Shown piece by piece: positions 2,256 to 24,746 of a stretch of DNA of 64,000 nucleotides. The DNA lies in IMG/VR virus record IMGVR_UViG_3300003316_000080, positions 3,483 through 67,482 of that record; one strand, given 5' to 3'. The position numbers and the translations under genes are program-made. Source of the stretch: a virus. The notes beneath the pieces were generated by a model. It was not told the DNA's origin. It saw nothing but the letters and a program-made list of their open reading frames with translations, and made no database searches. Position 1 is the stretch's first letter, and each line of letters begins with the position of its first letter.

Positions 2256-3832
2256 TTCTGGTGTCGCGCCATGCCATCACACGCTACCTTGACCGAGAGC
2301 TAGAAACACACAAGTGGGTCAAGAAGCTGACAGAGCGTCAGCTGTGGCAGGAACTGAAGCAGCTGCGCACTGTCCCTCAGTTCAAGACTGACCCATGGCT
2401 GCACCAACTGGCGTGCTTCTATCTGGGCCTGCACTACCTGCGCTTCCTGTTCATCCTAGACATGGGGCTGGGCAAGTCGAAGTTGGTGATTGACCTGATC
2501 GAGCACCGTTTTCGGCAGAAGCGTCTCAGCATGCGCCGCGACGGACGCACAGCGCTGGTGATCGTTCCAGGCGTGCTGAATACGGTTGGATGGGGTGAGG
2601 ACATCGAGCGCCATTCACTCATGGAACCGCACCTGATCACGTGCGAGAACATTGAGCAGAAGCGCTATGAACTGCTGCACCCACAAGGTGAAGTGACCGT
2701 GATCGACATGCCGTCGCTTGCCCTAGCACTGTCCACCAAGAAGAAAGGCAAGGGTCGTGGCAAGTTGCTGGCAGACAAGCAGGCGATTGCACGCGCTCAG
2801 CAGTTGTACGGTTTCATTGGCGTTGATGAGACGCACAAGTACAAGAACCACGAAACCCTGTGGTACGACGTGCTCGATCCTCTGTGTGCAGCAGCCGACG
2901 AGGTGAAGGGGCTGACTGGAACCATCTTCAGTGCAAGTCCGATCGAGATGTGGCCGCAGTTTAATCTCGTCGACCGAGGTGAGACGTTCGAGAACCGTGG
3001 ACTCTTCCAGGCGGCCTTCTTCGACTCGAAGTCAGATCATGTGAAGGGGACTGTGTACACCTTCAGGCCTGAGAGGACACGTACTCTCAACAGGATGATG
3101 CAGCACCGCTCGATTCAGTATGACGAATCGGAGGTGCACGAACTTCCAGAGCGCGTCTATCGTCCGATCAGGATGGAACTGGCAGGCGAAGCGGACGAGC
3201 ATTACCGTCGCGCTCTGGAAGGTGTCATTAATGTTGGCGCCGCCGAGAGTAGCAAGCTAGATGGAGGCTGGGTGCGCATGCGCCAGATCTGCGGTGGCTA
3301 CCTGAAGTGGTCTGATGCACACGGAGCGCACAAGCTCATCTTTGCACAGAACCCGAAGTTGGACATGCTGATGCGCCTGCTGGAGGACATCGGAAGTAAG
3401 AAGGCTGTTGTGTGCCATGACTACACCGACAGCGCGGAACTGATCGAAGCGCGGTTTAAGAAGGAGGGCATCAAGTACGCCACGTGCTCAGGGCGGACGA
3501 AGGACAAACCGGCAGAACGCGCTCGCTTTCTCGATGATCCAACCTGCCGCGTCTTCTTGATGCAGAACGCGGCTGGGGGAACAGGCACTGACGGCCTGCA
3601 GAAGGTGTCCAACTACATGATCTTCTTTGAGTCGCCAGCCTCCCCGGGTCTGCGCAAGCAAGTAGAAAAGCGCATACATCGTCCAGGTCAGACACAGAGG
3701 GCGTTCTACTACGATTTGACATATGGGCGCACCGTCGATAGCGGCATCCGTGAAGCACACAAGCAGGGTTTTGACCTATACGAAGCCGTGATGTCTGGAC
3801 GCTCTTCGACCTTGAGAGGGCTCATGAGTTGA
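2252..3832 (+). CDS. SF2 helicase, SNF2/DEAH-like
   Basis: Motif I LDMGLGKS, motif II GVDETHKYKN, C-terminal helicase domain with GGTGTDG and HRPGQTQ. Confidence 0.7.
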   Translation: MILVSRHAITRYLDRELETHKWVKKLTERQLWQELKQLRTVPQFKTDPWLHQLACFYLGLHYLRFLFILDMGLGKSKLVIDLIEHRFRQKRLSMRRDGRTALVIVPGVLNTVGWGEDIERHSLMEPHLITCENIEQKRYELLHPQGEVTVIDMPSLALALSTKKKGKGRGKLLADKQAIARAQQLYGFIGVDETHKYKNHETLWYDVLDPLCAAADEVKGLTGTIFSASPIEMWPQFNLVDRGETFENRGLFQAAFFDSKSDHVKGTVYTFRPERTRTLNRMMQHRSIQYDESEVHELPERVYRPIRMELAGEADEHYRRALEGVINVGAAESSKLDGGWVRMRQICGGYLKWSDAHGAHKLIFAQNPKLDMLMRLLEDIGSKKAVVCHDYTDSAELIEARFKKEGIKYATCSGRTKDKPAERARFLDDPTCRVFLMQNAAGGTGTDGLQKVSNYMIFFESPASPGLRKQVEKRIHRPGQTQRAFYYDLTYGRTVDSGIREAHKQGFDLYEAVMSGRSSTLRGLMS

Positions 3833-19709: not shown

Positions 19710-20651
19710 ATGACTGTCTATTACAACGAGTTCAATCTGCACGCAGCCAAGTGGATTAGCAATCTGATCAAGGCAGGTTTGATAGCACCCGGGATTGTCG
19801 ACACAAGGAGCATTGAGGATGTCAGACCGCGAGACTTGCGAGGGTTCAAGCAGTGTCATTTCTTCGCCGGAGTGGGCGTGTGGAGCTATGCACTCCGACA
19901 AGCGGGATGGGCAGATGACAGAGAGGTCTGGACAGGTAGTTGCCCCTGCCAACCTTTCAGCTCGGCAGGCGCAAAAGCTGGGTTTGATGACGAGCGGCAC
20001 TTGTGGCCCCACTTCCACTGGCTCATCGGCGAGTGCCGACCTACAGTCATTTATGGAGAGCAGGTTGCAAGCAAGAACGCGGACCCTTGGATCGACCTTG
20101 TATGTTCTGACCTGGAAGCCTTGGGTTACGCCTTCGGGGCGGTCCCGTTTGCGTCAGCGGGCGTCGGCGCCCCGCACGCGCGAGAGCGTACGTACTGGAT
20201 GGCCCACACCAACAACAAGGGACTGGAAGGACGGCAAGGGTTGCGACAACGTACCGGCGAACGCGCTGCTGGGGCGTGTGGTGTGGCTGGCCGGTTGGGC
20301 AACGCCGACTACGTTGCACAACAAGCGGACGGAGGCTTTCGCGGCGGGCCGCACTCCGACGCCTTCGGAAGTGCTGCCGACCTGCCAGCCGGCCCGACTA
20401 ACGGCTACTGGAAAACTGCTGACTGGCTCTTCTGCCGGGATGAGCAGTGGAGGCCCGTTGAACCCGGCACATTCCCGTTGGCTGATGGCGCTGTTGCCAG
20501 AATGGGACGCGTGCGCGCCTATGGAAACGCTATCAATGCTGAGCAAGCCCGAATCTTTATTGAAGTGGGCATGGAAGCCTTGCACGCCCAGACACAAGCT
20601 GAGAACACCTCGGCATCAACTGCGCGGAAGCAACTGAGAGGCCCTACGTGA
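19710..20651 (+). CDS. DNA (cytosine-5)-methyltransferase
   Basis: Motif I FFAGVGVW, motif IV GSCPCQPFSSAG, ENV-like YGEQV, motif VIII LEALGYAFGAVPFASAGVGAPHARERTYWMA, motif X-like RAYGNAINAEQA. Confidence 0.7.
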   Translation: MTVYYNEFNLHAAKWISNLIKAGLIAPGIVDTRSIEDVRPRDLRGFKQCHFFAGVGVWSYALRQAGWADDREVWTGSCPCQPFSSAGAKAGFDDERHLWPHFHWLIGECRPTVIYGEQVASKNADPWIDLVCSDLEALGYAFGAVPFASAGVGAPHARERTYWMAHTNNKGLEGRQGLRQRTGERAAGACGVAGRLGNADYVAQQADGGFRGGPHSDAFGSAADLPAGPTNGYWKTADWLFCRDEQWRPVEPGTFPLADGAVARMGRVRAYGNAINAEQARIFIEVGMEALHAQTQAENTSASTARKQLRGPT

Positions 20652-20881
20652 AGATCACTGACGTGTCCAACAAGAAGACAGTGGTGTGTGGCTTCACATG
20701 CTGGCATTGCCGCCGCGTGGTGTTATCTGGTGGCGCCGCTGAAGTCGTCGAGATCTCGATCAAGTTGCGGCCGGGCGCTGACAGACGTGAGCGTGCAAAC
20801 CGCCTGAGAATGGCCCGTGCTGAACTGCGCCATGCCCTTGCTATATTCCGCGCCAACAAAGAACTTGAGGACCTCGCATGA
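20648..20881 (+). CDS. small zinc-ribbon protein
   Basis: GTGA overlap upstream, ATGA overlap downstream; CGFTCWHC cysteine cluster. Confidence 0.4.
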   Translation: MKITDVSNKKTVVCGFTCWHCRRVVLSGGAAEVVEISIKLRPGADRRERANRLRMARAELRHALAIFRANKELEDLA

Positions 20882-23370
20882 GTGTGCGTTGTGTTGACTG
20901 CCTTGTGGGCCTGCGCCAGCTTCCAGATGCATCCGTTGATGCCATCGTCACGGATCCGCCCTACGGCCTGAGCGAGCAGAAGCCAGCGGAACTCGCTGCT
21001 TGCATCGCTGCATGGCTGGCCGGCGAGGTCTACCAGCCGAAGGGCAAGGGCTTCATGGGCAAGTCCTGGGACGCCTGGGTGCCTGGGCCCGAAGTCTGGC
21101 GCGAGTGCTTCCGCGTTCTCAAGCCGGGCGGACACATCCTGGCCTTCGCCGGCACGCGCACGCAGCACTTGATGGCGCTGTCGATGGCCCTGGCTGGATT
21201 CGAAATCAGGGACATGATCGCCTGGGTGTATGGCTCCGGGTTTCCGAAGTCGCTGGACGTGTCGAAGGCGGTCGACAAGGCAGGCGGAGCCTCGCCCGTC
21301 GAGCAGGCTGAACTGCTGCGCCGCAAGCGCGTGGCGGCCGGCCTGACGCGAGAGCAGGTCGCGGAACACTGCGGGTGCACTCCATCGAGCGTTCGAGACT
21401 GGGAAGAAGGCCGAGCGCGCGCCGTCGGTGCCGCCGTTGAGTTCATCGTCCCGAGCGACGAGTACCGCACCAAGCTGGCCGACTTGCTCGGTTACAGCGT
21501 GGACGAGCGCAAGCTGATTGGAACCTCGGCTGACCGGCGCGGCGATGGCACCGTCTACGGGGTGGGCCACAGCGGAGAGTTGCGCGCTGGCGGCAACACC
21601 GACGCTGCCCGCCAGTGGGAAGGCTGGGGCACCGCCCTGAAGCCGGCCCTTGAAACGGTTACTTTCGCTTCAAAGCCGTATACCGAAGAGCAGGAACGGA
21701 GTATAATTCAATCGAACCTAATTCGATTGGAGGCCCGTTTATGGTTGCTGTCGTCTGCGAGTGCTGCGGAAAAGAGTTCAACGTCAAGCCAAAGCGAGTA
21801 CGGCGCGGCGTGCGCTATTGCTCAATGGAGTGCCGACGAAATCACCAGTACACGGGCCGCTTTGTGCGGTCAGATGGATACGTCGCTGTTCGAGTGGGCA
21901 GCGACTACCAGCTTGAGCATCGTGTCGTCATGGAGGCGCACATTGGTCGAAAGCTGGAGCGATGGGAGCACGTCCACCACCGAAACGAAGTCAAACACGA
22001 CAACCGACTCGAGAACCTTGAAATTCTCACTGTCGCAGATCACGCCGAGCACCATCATCAAGGCCTGCAGCCTTCCCGGTGGGTTCAATGCGAATGCCTC
22101 CACTGCGGAAAGCCACTTCAACGCCTCGCTGTTGTTGTTGCAAAGCATCCGCACACTTTCTGCGACCGAGCCTGCTATATCGCAGGCGCAGCACGAACAC
22201 CTGGGCGCGGGCGTAAAGCCGAACCTTGATCCATGCATCATGGCGCGCAAGCCGCTGGTCGGAACGGTCGCGGCCAACGTTCTGGAGCACGGGACGGGGG
22301 CGCTGAATATCGACGGGTGCCGCGTGGGCGATGAGGAGCGGGTGAACGGCGCCGGATCTGTGACCTCGCTTCAGCGTCAATCACGGGTCGCGGCGGGATA
22401 CCGCGATGATGCTGGCGTTGGCCCAGGCTCTGACGCGAAGACCGTTGTTGGCCGTTGGCCCGCCAACCTGATCCACGACGGCAGCGACGAGGTGCTGGCG
22501 GCGTTCCCGAACGCGCCTGGTCAACTCGCGACGGCGAGCACCAGCGACACGCAGCGCTCCGGACAGAACACCTACGGTGCGATGACCCGTGGCAGCACGG
22601 GACAAGAACCGCGCGACGAGCTCGACAAGAGCGCCGCCCGATTTTTCAAGGAGTGTGCATGGGACGAACCTCGATCTGTTGCGAGCACTGCCGCGCAGCC
22701 TTTGTGCCTGCAAAACCAAGTCGCCGATTCTGTTCAGAGCGCTGCAGCAACTTGGGCCAGCCTCGCGGGAATACTCTCAAACGATTCGAAGGAACGTTCT
22801 ATGAACGTAACTCCGATCGAGTCAAGAGCGATCGCAGAAACCGTTATCACTGCGACGACGAGTATCGCAAGCGGGTTCTCGCTCGAGTCGCAGCACGAAA
22901 GGCTCACCCCGTGCCGCAGCCTTGTGAAGACTGTGGTGCGCCGAACGCCGATCGGCATCACGACGATTACGACAAGCCTCTCTCGATCCGATGGAAGTGC
23001 CGGAGCTGCCACGTTCACCATCACGCCGACGAGCTTGGATCGTGGGGATCTGGGCTCGCGGTTTGAGTACTGCGCCAAGGCTAGCAAGAAGGATCGCGGC
23101 GAGGGTAACAACCACCCTACTGTCAAGCCGACCGCGCTGATGCGGTATCTCGTCCGCCTTGTTACCCCTCCGGGTGGCACTGTACTTGATCCTTACACGG
23201 GCTCTGGTTCAACAGGAGTGGCCGCGCAAGCGGAAGGCTTCAAGTTCATCGGATTTGAGAATGACCCTGCTTCTTGTGCGATTGCAAACAGGCGAATGGG
23301 ACTCACGGGCCTGCTTGCTGTGAACAAAGAGCGCCGCCAGCTGCGTCTTCGCAAGCAGTTGATTGAGTGA
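20878..23370 (+). CDS. N6-adenine/N4-cytosine DNA methyltransferase (DPPY class), open frame interrupted by two HNH-gene inserts
   Basis: N-term VTDPPYGL; embedded XRE-like HTH; GWGTALKPA../..ARKPLVGTVAANVLEHGTGALNIDGCR; C-term HPTVKP and VLDPYTGSGSTG; 830-aa frame with no stop. Confidence 0.7.
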   Translation: MSVRCVDCLVGLRQLPDASVDAIVTDPPYGLSEQKPAELAACIAAWLAGEVYQPKGKGFMGKSWDAWVPGPEVWRECFRVLKPGGHILAFAGTRTQHLMALSMALAGFEIRDMIAWVYGSGFPKSLDVSKAVDKAGGASPVEQAELLRRKRVAAGLTREQVAEHCGCTPSSVRDWEEGRARAVGAAVEFIVPSDEYRTKLADLLGYSVDERKLIGTSADRRGDGTVYGVGHSGELRAGGNTDAARQWEGWGTALKPALETVTFASKPYTEEQERSIIQSNLIRLEARLWLLSSASAAEKSSTSSQSEYGAACAIAQWSADEITSTRAALCGQMDTSLFEWAATTSLSIVSSWRRTLVESWSDGSTSTTETKSNTTTDSRTLKFSLSQITPSTIIKACSLPGGFNANASTAESHFNASLLLLQSIRTLSATEPAISQAQHEHLGAGVKPNLDPCIMARKPLVGTVAANVLEHGTGALNIDGCRVGDEERVNGAGSVTSLQRQSRVAAGYRDDAGVGPGSDAKTVVGRWPANLIHDGSDEVLAAFPNAPGQLATASTSDTQRSGQNTYGAMTRGSTGQEPRDELDKSAARFFKECAWDEPRSVASTAAQPLCLQNQVADSVQSAAATWASLAGILSNDSKERSMNVTPIESRAIAETVITATTSIASGFSLESQHERLTPCRSLVKTVVRRTPIGITTITTSLSRSDGSAGAATFTITPTSLDRGDLGSRFEYCAKASKKDRGEGNNHPTVKPTALMRYLVRLVTPPGGTVLDPYTGSGSTGVAAQAEGFKFIGFENDPASCAIANRRMGLTGLLAVNKERRQLRLRKQLIE
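21741..22229 (+). CDS. HNH homing endonuclease nested in MTase gene
   Basis: Own GGAGG RBS; CxxC clusters; EHVHHRNEVKHDNRLENLEILTVADHAEHHH; +2 frame relative to MTase. Confidence 0.8.
   Translation: MVAVVCECCGKEFNVKPKRVRRGVRYCSMECRRNHQYTGRFVRSDGYVAVRVGSDYQLEHRVVMEAHIGRKLERWEHVHHRNEVKHDNRLENLEILTVADHAEHHHQGLQPSRWVQCECLHCGKPLQRLAVVVAKHPHTFCDRACYIAGAARTPGRGRKAEP
22659..23066 (+). CDS. HNH homing endonuclease nested in MTase gene
   Basis: AAGGAG RBS; CEDCGAPNADRHHDDYDKPLSIRWKCRSCHVHHH; +2 frame relative to MTase. Confidence 0.75.
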   Translation: MGRTSICCEHCRAAFVPAKPSRRFCSERCSNLGQPRGNTLKRFEGTFYERNSDRVKSDRRNRYHCDDEYRKRVLARVAARKAHPVPQPCEDCGAPNADRHHDDYDKPLSIRWKCRSCHVHHHADELGSWGSGLAV

Positions 23371-23484
23371 CACAATGAACACTCTTTCGTGACCTCTCGA
23401 TGGAACAGATCAACCGACCGGAAAGGATGGGTAGGCGCATGCGTTGAAGCGAACAGGACACGCCCACGTGGGCATTTAGGCAAA

Positions 23485-23520
23485 AGGCCCCTGACTCAAC
23501 ATCAGGGGCCTTTATGCTTT
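23485..23520 (+). terminator. rho-independent terminator hairpin between convergent units
   Basis: AGGCCCCTG...CAGGGGCCT stem followed by TTATGCTTT. Confidence 0.5.
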
Positions 23521-23538
23521 CGAGCGGAGGGGAGGGTG

Positions 23539-23961
23539 TCAGAACGTGACACCCATGCGCTTCAATTTCACCTTGATCTCATCCACCGTGTGGATCACCT
23601 CGGGTCGAGAGAACAAACCCCAGCGATCTTTGTGCACCATGCACGACACGTCGTCGACGATCAGTGACGCATTGGCAACGAGGGCAAACGGCAGGTCCAT
23701 CACCTTGGTGTTGGTTGCGAAGGCTGCTGTCTGTCCGTTGAGGCAGAACAGCAACCGTGTGAGTTGTGGTTGCTCAGAGCGACGCTTGCGCTCGTCCACA
23801 TCACGCTTGACCGCGCGCAGCAGATGGTGGACGACGGCCACAGCACGGCGCTGATCAGGTGTGCTCTGGCGAGCCACCATACAGTCAAGCTCATGCACCC
23901 ACCACTGGCCCTCTTGGAAGTCCTCCAGTGGACTTGTCCCGTCACACTTGTCATTGCTCAT
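23539..23961 (-). CDS. hypothetical protein
   Basis: Last gene of leftward operon; start overlaps upstream gene stop. Confidence 0.45.
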   Translation of the reverse strand: MSNDKCDGTSPLEDFQEGQWWVHELDCMVARQSTPDQRRAVAVVHHLLRAVKRDVDERKRRSEQPQLTRLLFCLNGQTAAFATNTKVMDLPFALVANASLIVDDVSCMVHKDRWGLFSRPEVIHTVDEIKVKLKRMGVTF

Positions 23962-24151
23962 CGCTTTTCTCCTTTGATGCTGCGAAGCTCTTGGTGTCCG
24001 CAGGAATGTCGTCCATGAGTGGACCCAGACCGAATGCGTCTGCTATCACCCGAGTGAATGGCTGAACCGGGCAGTGCACGTACCAGTGACCGCGCTGGCC
24101 GCAAGTGACGCACTCGCGCTCCGGGTTGAGTTGTTGTGGATCAGCTGGCAT
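23951..24151 (-). CDS. CCHC zinc-knuckle protein
   Basis: GGAGG RBS then ATG (MPADPQQ); C-x2-C-x4-H-x4-C in CVTCGQRGHWYVHC. Confidence 0.45.
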   Translation of the reverse strand: MPADPQQLNPERECVTCGQRGHWYVHCPVQPFTRVIADAFGLGPLMDDIPADTKSFAASKEKSDEQ

Positions 24152-24290
24152 TGGTGCCTCCGATGAAGTCCGCTGGATCAGGCCGGCGCTCGTCGAACTC
24201 ACGGCCGTCGCGGGCGGCTGCGAACATGCGCGCGTACCATGACTCCAGCGCTGCTCGATAGCGCATCAGCGCGCGGAACTCGGCGCTCAC
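24141..24290 (-). CDS. hypothetical small protein (49 aa)
   Basis: GGAGG RBS then GTG; overlaps neighbours by 4-11 nt. Confidence 0.3.
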   Translation of the reverse strand: MSAEFRALMRYRAALESWYARMFAAARDGREFDERRPDPADFIGGTNAS

Positions 24291-24409
24291 GATCCGCCTC
24301 CCTGGGACAGCGCGGCACTATCGGTTTCAGCCATGTAGCGATGCGCTGCGGATTGCGCTTTCAAGCGTTCGATCAGCGCTTCCAGCGCCTGGGTGCGTGA
24401 GGTGGTCAT
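24287..24409 (-). CDS. hypothetical small protein (40 aa)
   Basis: AAGGA RBS then ATG; translationally coupled to next gene. Confidence 0.3.
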   Translation of the reverse strand: MTTSRTQALEALIERLKAQSAAHRYMAETDSAALSQGGGS

Positions 24410-24458
24410 GGGTGTCCTTGGTGCGGGAATGTGGAATGTGGATAGGACTTAAGCCGTG

Positions 24459-24746
24459 TCAGGCGGGTCGAACAGCGTCAGGTGACACCGTGGCGAAGCG
24501 GCTCCGAGGGCTTTTGTAGTAGTCCATTTCAACGCGAAGTTGAATGCTGGCAGTCGTGCCGCTGCCAAAGTTCCAAGTGTGTACGGTGCAGCCCCAGATA
24601 GTGGCCGGTGACGGATTGACTTGGCGGCTGCTGAGTAGCACCCCGACACGTGTTCCAACTGGATAGAGGTCTGCGGCCAGGGCGAGTGCGTCGTCATGGG
24701 CTTTACCAACGGCGCCCAGTAGTTGGTTCAGGGCCTTTTCGTTCAT
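24459..24746 (-). CDS. hypothetical protein
   Basis: AAGGAGA RBS lying inside the C-terminus of the upstream gene. Confidence 0.5.
   Translation of the reverse strand: MNEKALNQLLGAVGKAHDDALALAADLYPVGTRVGVLLSSRQVNPSPATIWGCTVHTWNFGSGTTASIQLRVEMDYYKSPRSRFATVSPDAVRPA

Follow-up and report, generated by a model that had tools for sequence, protein, structure and literature searches.

We report that a single DNA methyltransferase (methylase) gene of a phage genome contains two HNH endonuclease genes lying out of frame with it, while the methylase frame remains open from end to end. The gene was found in a 64,000-nucleotide stretch, hereafter the window, which covers positions 3,483 to 67,482 of the virus record IMGVR_UViG_3300003316_000080 in IMG/VR and is numbered here from its first letter. 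According to the explanation that we favour, with a probability of roughly 80%, two independent out-of-frame HNH homing-endonuclease elements invaded one methylase gene, which would still be read through as one polypeptide, and the HNH proteins would be produced by internal initiation. The comparisons presented below establish the architecture of the gene, the homology of the first element to the 'ShiLan domain' of actinobacteriophage methylases, the mobility of the elements, the selection acting on the HNH frame and the selection for an open host frame.

Two HNH genes within one open methylase frame

The methylase open reading frame (ORF) is continuous across both inserts, whose lengths are multiples of three and which contain no stop in the host frame (Table 1). 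Its product matches PF01555 (N6_N4_Mtase, E = 3.5e-31), with the match split into N- and C-terminal stretches, as well as the PHROG family phrog_67 'DNA methyltransferase' (2.8e-65). The catalytic motifs are intact (DPPY at amino acids 26-29 and HPTVKP at 746-751), and so is the FxGxG-type S-adenosylmethionine motif VLDPYTGSGSTG near the C-terminus. In a sequence search of the PDB, the alignments of the methylase to CcrM, M.RsrI and other entries were confined to its two terminal parts. The GC content, about 67% in the surrounding DNA, goes down to 54-58% in both inserts.

As a reference for the empty sites we used P0096, a 469-amino-acid metagenomic methylase homologue with the same helix-turn-helix region. 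It aligns with the 830-amino-acid product end to end except for the two inserts, and it reads GWGTALKPALEPITVARKP and GSAARFFYCAKASKKDRGEGNAHPTVKP uninterrupted; P0096 therefore represents an empty-site allele for both. The Cylindrospermopsis phage Cr-LKS3 gives an intermediate case, its g59 carrying insert 1 and lacking insert 2 (site 2 reads ARFFYCAKAS uninterrupted). Both insertions are thus located in conserved residues of PF01555 methylases, and the sites are empty in the close homologues P0096 and P0076 and, for site 2, in Cr-LKS3. An exact-match look-up of the window protein in a contig index returned no match.

A preliminary description of this DNA, made from the sequence alone, had proposed a methylase frame that stays open through two out-of-frame HNH genes, with inserts that are multiples of three and free of host-frame stops. 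The ORF, Pfam and PHROG matches confirm this, and the collinearity with P0096 agrees with it. The inserts exist as described, and their lengths had been set somewhat too short (525 and 393 nt instead of 576 and 420): we refined the boundaries against the empty-site homologues P0096 and Cr-LKS3 and 11 related loci. The DNA alignment used for element 1 contained 13 loci (the window, Cr-LKS3 and 11 IMG/VR loci), and the limits of element 2 come from a protein alignment of empty-site homologues with nine element-2 loci.

Table 1. Features of the methylase gene and its two inserts (window positions; a slash marks the insertion point)
Feature	Position	Strand	Description	Basis
Methylase host gene	20878..23370	+	830-aa beta-class N6/N4 DNA methyltransferase ORF, continuous across both inserts	ORF list
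HTH_31/HTH_3 domain	21308..21511	+	in-frame, aa 144-211 of methylase	Pfam HTH_31 1.1e-9
Left-end mimic LETVTFASKP	21649..21678	+	host frame; imitates native downstream half-motif LEPITVARKP	
Element 1	21654..22229	+	576 bp, 192 host-frame codons, ShiLan-type insertion	DNA alignment, 13 loci
HNH1 Shine-Dalgarno GGAGG	21729..21733	+	7 nt 5' of HNH1 ATG	read from sequence
HNH1	21741..22229	+	162-aa zinc-ribbon HNH endonuclease ORF	PF13392 HNH_3 3.3e-9; PHROG HNH families down to 1e-17
Right-end mimic GAGVKPNL	22204..22227	+	host frame; imitates native upstream half-motif GWGTALKPAL	
Element 2	22648..23067	+	420 bp, 140 codons, between host codons F590 and Y731 (ARFF/YCAKAS)	protein alignment
HNH2 Shine-Dalgarno AAGGAG	22648..22653	+	first six bases of element 2, 5 nt 5' of HNH2 ATG	read from sequence
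HNH2	22659..23066	+	135-aa CxxC...HH...CxxCH..HH endonuclease ORF	phrog_2340 'endonuclease' 1e-10

Element 1 and its relation to the ShiLan domain

Element 1 interrupts the native motif GWGTALKPALEPITVARKP and homologues such as P0096 and P0076 lack it. It is bounded by a CTTGA repeat (21649-21653 and 22225-22229), which leaves a 5-bp uncertainty as to its exact ends. Relative to HNH1, the host methylase frame lies one base downstream. The HNH1 stop codon, TGA at 22227-22229, forms the last three nucleotides of the insert within the right CTTGA repeat, and the part outside the HNH1 ORF is an 87-nt leader containing the Shine-Dalgarno (SD) sequence. This SD is identical in 8 of 12 close loci, the window included, and degraded in three (L002, L008 and L011); in related loci the HNH1 frame has a stop five codons upstream of the ATG.

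The left junction reads GWGTALKPA+LETVTFASKP and the right one GAGVKPNL+DPCIMARKP, so that each re-creates a near-native 19-residue motif, GWGTALKPAxEPIxxARKP. The duplicated host motif of the preliminary description is therefore sustained for element 1. The right-end mimic overlaps the C-terminal tail of HNH1 (GRGRKAEP, followed by the stop). Moreover, the wobble positions of the mimic codons are invariant among elements residing in divergent hosts, which indicates that the mimics belong to the mobile unit and travel with it.

The same arrangement, at the same site, has been published as the ShiLan domain or hidden HNH of actinobacteriophage DNA methylases (Gosselin et al. 2023, PMC9957025; Arsenault, Gosselin & Gogarten 2025, PMC11855218), a term also used in a 2025 genome announcement. 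The preliminary suggestion of an undescribed homing arrangement is thereby superseded. In mycobacteriophage methylases, the ShiLan domain is a stop-free insertion of 202 amino acids hiding a 195-amino-acid out-of-frame HNH; it closes with the HNH stop, its first 11 residues resemble downstream host residues, its distribution is disjunct, and it lacks the features of introns or inteins. Initiation of its HNH as a leaderless product from a GTG was proposed, and the unspliced state of the insertion is an inference in that work (PMC11855218). With tblastn, HNH1 is 48% identical to the hidden HNH of ShiLan gp65 (E 2e-35, 97% coverage), and its identity to ShiLan-type HNHs as a group (ShiLan, Mantra, Bipolar and others) is 47-50%, with E values of about 1e-35. 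Mantra gp64 displays the element-1 site itself: GWGTALKPS/HEPVVVARKPH...SSAF/EPIVVARKPL.

Element 1 thus has in common with the ShiLan domain a PF01555 methylase as host, an insertion point inside GWGTALKP(A/S)/xEPxxxARKP, a host frame lying one base downstream of the HNH frame without any stop, an HNH stop at the extreme end of the insert, a start of the insert that imitates downstream host residues, a disjunct distribution and the lack of an intron or intein signature. On these sequence grounds, it is an element of the ShiLan type that resides in another phage lineage. Unlike the ShiLan case, the element lies outside the actinobacteriophages (among isolated phages Cr-LKS3 is the closest relative, and the other relatives are metagenomic), the insert and its HNH are shorter (192 versus 202 and 162 versus 195 amino acids), the HNH begins with an ATG behind a canonical GGAGG rather than with a GTG for which leaderless initiation was proposed, the upstream half-motif is imitated as well, by the right end of the insert (GAGVKPNL), and the gene carries a second, unrelated element. 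HNH1 is 93% identical to an ORF nested in Cr-LKS3 g59. That 162-amino-acid HNH ORF (L001 4422-4910; OM373202 39565-40053) is unannotated, GenBank giving only g59 as a 616-amino-acid 'DNA methylase'.

Element 2, an unrelated family at a second site

Element 2 consists almost wholly of the SD and the HNH2 gene; 11 nt precede the ATG and 1 nt follows the stop, which makes 12 nt of non-ORF sequence. The HNH2 frame lies one base upstream of the host frame, and its TGA ends 1 nt before the right junction. The SD is thus found upstream of both HNH starts and is mostly conserved among relatives; with a canonical SD before each ATG, there is no need to invoke a leaderless start. Upstream of its ATG, the HNH2 frame stays open for a further 68 codons (ORF 22455..23066). 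In its family, the only end feature that recurs is a right-end 'xRFx' before YCAKAS. The left-end 'KECAW' of the window, which had been taken for a copy of the host motif, is simply what AAGGAG and the ATG encode when read in the host frame; it is not conserved, so that the earlier proposal is weak for this end. We also dropped 'FCRAKA', seen in element-2 relatives, as a mimic of the host YCAKAS, since it coincides with a promoter-like stretch and is missing in the window.

We found 18 IMG/VR relatives of HNH2, with 57-70% identity and a GC content of 44-61%, all of them (18/18) nested in PF01555 methylase ORFs. Within 50,697 isolated-phage records, HNH2 had no match inside any methylase, and the family did not turn up in the papers that we searched. 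Searches of genome contigs, which served as a negative control, gave only distant free-standing relatives (at most 38% identity over most of the length) in Alphaproteobacteria and other metagenome-assembled genomes, none of them nested in an open frame. The closest published parallel is Pacc40 gp60, in which a hidden HNH/AP2-like out-of-frame ORF occupies another position of an open methylase frame (PMC11855218, section 3.6). In concept it corresponds to element 2, with a different methylase family and site. BLAST detected no similarity between HNH2 and either the ShiLan hidden ORF or the Pacc40 one (L121 3866-4345), and we accordingly rejected the identification of HNH2 with the latter. As judged by its sequence, element 2 represents an unrelated HNH family at a further site, sharing the ShiLan architecture and the kind of arrangement, not the lineage.

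Five element-2 relatives (L032, L033, L035, L037 and L041) share a conserved TTG(C/T)TT-N17-TATAAT/CATACT box, located some 40-80 nt past ARFF and preceding GGAGG and the ATG. This box reads 'L(L/F)FCRAKAI' in the host frame and is lacking from the window copy. It suggests, as a weak lead only, an internal HNH promoter. A promoter scan of L037 and L035 did not call the box, its −35 hexamer matching at three of six positions, and no sigma-70-like site was found on scanning 20600-23600 of the window.

Mobility and selection

Within element 1, the loci share a mean pairwise DNA identity of 0.92-0.96; outside it, past the conserved motif codons, the value drops to 0.35-0.54, and the methylase protein parts of these loci are 34-71% identical. 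An element identity so far above that of the flanks indicates mobility. The element has the disjunct distribution of ShiLan-type insertions and is more conserved than its host gene. The HNH frame itself is under purifying selection: at HNH codon positions 1, 2 and 3, the HNH1 family has 32, 14 and 62 variable columns out of 162 each, that is, the order 3>1>2 expected from such selection. In the host frame, most of these substitutions hit position 2, so that the host-frame peptide can vary freely as long as it avoids stops. The HNH proteins are better conserved than the host-frame peptides, with 90-95% versus 82-88% identity for element 1 and 57-70% versus 35-51% for element 2.

We then asked whether the open host frame could be due to chance. 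In the window taken alone, zero stops is modest evidence. A synonymous null matched for GC content at third codon positions (GC3) gave P = 0.0003 for HNH1 and 0.05 for HNH2, and permuting the gene's own synonymous codons, the most conservative null, gave P = 0.16 and 0.54. The comparison across loci is decisive. We found 11 IMG/VR relatives of HNH1 (62-95% identity) nested in methylase ORFs, and in 10 of them the host frame is open through the HNH gene and continuous with the N- and C-terminal methylase parts; one of the open loci, L012, is only 62% identical and has 37% GC (P = 0.001-0.002). The host frame is likewise open in 18/18 element-2 loci. Altogether, 28 of 29 related loci are stop-free with a length divisible by three, and the host parts are intact in 28/29. 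About 2-10 host-frame stops per gene are expected from GC3-matched synonymous resampling. Summed over 13 element-2 genes, the expectation is about 14 stops by within-gene permutation and about 40 under the GC3-matched null, and none was observed. Free-standing HNH relatives have 5-17 stops per gene in the equivalent frame, and in later samples their open stretches were at most about 190 amino acids and never joined to a methylase ORF. The third frame is closed everywhere in the related loci. Moreover, the host frame stays open at 37-49% GC (L012, L030, L037 and L042) and over 30-40% divergence of the HNH amino-acid sequence. We conclude from these sequence comparisons that the host frame is kept open by selection across the related loci.

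Two copies, L008 (at ~3444) and L011 (at ~655), have a premature TGA in the HNH frame with the methylase frame still open, and in L009 (at ~2975) a stop closes the methylase frame at the left edge of element 1. These may be different stages of decay.

Proposed mechanism and alternative explanations

In the scenario that we propose, each element consists of an HNH gene equipped with a ribosome-binding site, and its choice of codons and amino acids leaves the host frame free of stops. The methylase would be translated through both elements without splicing, so that the 192- and 140-residue out-of-frame peptides form extra loops, and for each HNH ribosomes would initiate internally on the same mRNA, using the SD and ATG of that gene. 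The endonuclease would cut insert-free methylase alleles at the sequence coding for the conserved motif, and recombinational repair would copy the element in. The motif imitations of element 1 probably help the methylase to tolerate the insert. Of the possibilities raised earlier, this read-through methylase with HNHs from internal starts is the one favoured by the comparative evidence. A split or inactivated methylase is less likely, since the parts are not separated by any stop and divergent copies have conserved the open frame.

Several points weigh against this scenario. The 830-amino-acid protein is a predicted one, known from its ORF and from sequence comparison, and cleavage specificity and homing are deduced from distribution. 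The codon permutation of the window genes is not significant, and L009, with its stop, is a case in which the host frame was lost. The assignment of HNH2 as an HNH endonuclease, proposed in the preliminary description together with that of HNH1, holds at the level of the PHROG match and not of Pfam, where HNH1 hits PF13392 and HNH2 has no HNH model match; a sequence search of the PDB gave no meaningful match for HNH2 either. Finally, AlphaFold2 (119-sequence alignment; mean predicted local distance difference test score, pLDDT, 64.7) modelled the N- and C-terminal Rossmann parts of the 830-amino-acid protein confidently and gave pLDDT <50 at residues 441-611. The same middle region of the insert-free P0096 (229-370) also scores <50, so that the models are uninformative on the placement of the loops or on the motif copy that is used.

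The host-frame peptide of the inserts is an out-of-frame sequence rich in Ser, Thr and Ala, of which LEARLWLLSSASAAEK is an example. In the AlphaFold2 model, the strand 257-265, which is the left mimic, and helices within 270-360 reach pLDDT 73-90. The first ~95 residues of the element-1 translation (host-frame residues 268-360, window 21679-21960) appear as long helices with pLDDT 73-88, a model that may reflect either an alignment artefact or a real fold. A small helical bundle is also mentioned by Arsenault et al. (PMC11855218).

HNH genes are common in phage group I introns, and both inserts could be unrecognised self-splicing introns, group I-like or of a new ribozyme class, that leave an uninterrupted mature mRNA. 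The resemblance of the left end of element 1 to the 3' exon can even recall an internal-guide-sequence relationship (Arsenault et al., PMC11855218). However, this resemblance exists at the protein level and not at the DNA level (our alignment; PMC11855218), a covariance search of 20000-24500 against Rfam at E<=5 returned no intron family, element 1 has just 87 nt outside its ORF and element 2 just 12, and no cut within the CTTGA repeat of element 1 satisfies the rule of a U ending the 5' exon and a G ending the intron. A spliced insert, moreover, would need neither a stop-free frame nor a length divisible by three, yet 28 of 29 loci conserve both. We therefore regard introns as very improbable, as the preliminary description did for those of group I. 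Its rejection of classical inteins also stands: a Pfam search of the 830-amino-acid product found no intein domain, and the residues following the inserts, D451 (or P452) and Y731, are not the C, S or T required at position +1. A free-standing homing endonuclease gene that splits its host gene was ruled out by the single 830-amino-acid ORF.

The open frame could also be a mere by-product of high GC content in a dead or dying methylase. The window is GC-rich, long spurious ORFs abound in it (for example 20644..21570 on the minus strand and 19795..20637), the within-gene permutation of the window copies agrees with chance, and the methylase is dispensable in some mycobacteriophages (PMC11855218). 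Nevertheless, composition does not account for a frame that persists at low GC and over large HNH divergence while the third one is closed everywhere, nor a dead enzyme for intact DPPY, HPTVKP and FxGxG-type motifs and intact host parts in all but one locus, and we find this explanation scarcely tenable. A different idea is that the HNHs are domesticated partners of the methylase, a nuclease with its protective methylase directed against competing phages or host DNA, or that ribosomal frameshifting produces a methylase-HNH fusion. The HNH-methylase association does recur at no fewer than four sites and in a second methylase family, and the open stretch upstream of the HNH2 ATG would suit a fusion. 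Nonetheless, the patchy distribution among close alleles and an element identity far above that of the host fit selfish spread, truncated HNH copies are tolerated (L008, L011), the stop upstream of the HNH1 ATG in related loci would interrupt a fusion, both ORFs have their own SD, and no slippery site was noticed, though no search was aimed at one. Domestication or fusion is accordingly unlikely, and two invading elements in a read-through methylase remain our preferred explanation.

Other hidden HNH genes and other vehicles

Out-of-frame HNH ORFs were also seen elsewhere. Two PF01555 methylase genes that also hold element 1 contain an additional hidden HNH ORF, in L111 (2943-3389) between KADRxxG and HPTVKP in frame +2, and in L112 (880-1635) after about residue 93 in frame +1; the host frame is open in both. 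In L013 (1821-3545, IMGVR_UViG_3300037322_000293), an HNH_3 ORF (2869-3420, frame +2) lies in a 575-amino-acid phrog_1008 DNA methyltransferase ORF, hence in a different methylase family and relative frame, with 0 stops against 8.2 expected (0/3000 permutations). In L026 (1439-3724, IMGVR_UViG_3300045988_149849), the large terminase ORF includes a class-1 intein (...HL/CFTGDT ... LVSN/CDAGG), the middle of which holds an HNH_3 ORF (2944-3585, Pfam 1.6e-17) in a different frame, with the terminase/intein frame open (within-gene permutation P = 0.03).

This last case is of the same kind as the cyanobacterial dnaX intein with an out-of-frame homing endonuclease that was described in a 2026 preprint (bioRxiv 10.64898/2026.09.14.751524). 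As in the window, the dnaX endonuclease occupies an alternative frame and the host frame of the insert is open. In contrast, the intein is removed by protein splicing, whereas the window elements have no splicing domain and are followed by D or Y instead of C, S or T. Free-standing homing endonuclease genes can also split host genes, as does mobE in nrdA of the Aeromonas phage Aeh1. Like the window elements, mobE-type genes sit without intron or intein inside a conserved phage gene whose function is retained; they divide it into two ORFs whose products reassemble, whereas in the window there is no stop and a single polypeptide is predicted.

The pattern therefore extends to at least four sites in one methylase family, both alternative frames, a second methylase family and an intein, and the hidden HNHs belong to at least two lineages without detectable mutual sequence similarity. 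It is conceivable, and we put it forward only tentatively, that out-of-frame stop-free HNH insertions are a general third vehicle of homing endonucleases beside introns and inteins, built for toleration and not for splicing, with element 2 as a new family. In such a vehicle, coding would be constrained so as to keep the host frame open, and the ends would copy both halves of the interrupted motif, completing the host fold on either side of the insert.

Genomic setting of the methylase gene

The surroundings are those of a phage genome, with genes for DNA polymerase, clamp loader, single-stranded DNA-binding protein, a UvsX-like recombinase and SbcCD upstream, and for terminase and portal downstream. 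The gene preceding the methylase (window 19710-20651) encodes a phrog_363 / PF00145-like C5 DNA methyltransferase, in the same gene order as in Cr-LKS3. A 280-amino-acid ORF at 19795-20637 overlaps it in another frame and is probably a chance ORF of GC-rich DNA. The helix-turn-helix domain listed in Table 1 is found in the insert-free homologues P0096 and P0076 and not in Cr-LKS3; it is a feature of the host methylase, outside the mobile elements.

Significance

Relative to the published picture, this gene adds an SD before both HNHs, mimicry of the motif at both ends of element 1, a quantified avoidance of stops and recurrence at more sites and in more families. Both elements of the pair are led by an SD, whereas for the mycobacteriophage elements leaderless initiation had to be proposed. 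Gene callers miss such HNH genes: in Cr-LKS3 and in the methylase homologues that the protein search returned, only the long ORF is called. For the evolution of overlapping genes, the comparative data offer a clear example of selection that acts solely on the avoidance of stops. If the methylase works with 332 extra wrong-frame residues, homing endonucleases can colonise coding genes without any splicing machinery, and they would do so through overlapping coding that has evolved to be tolerated by the host protein.

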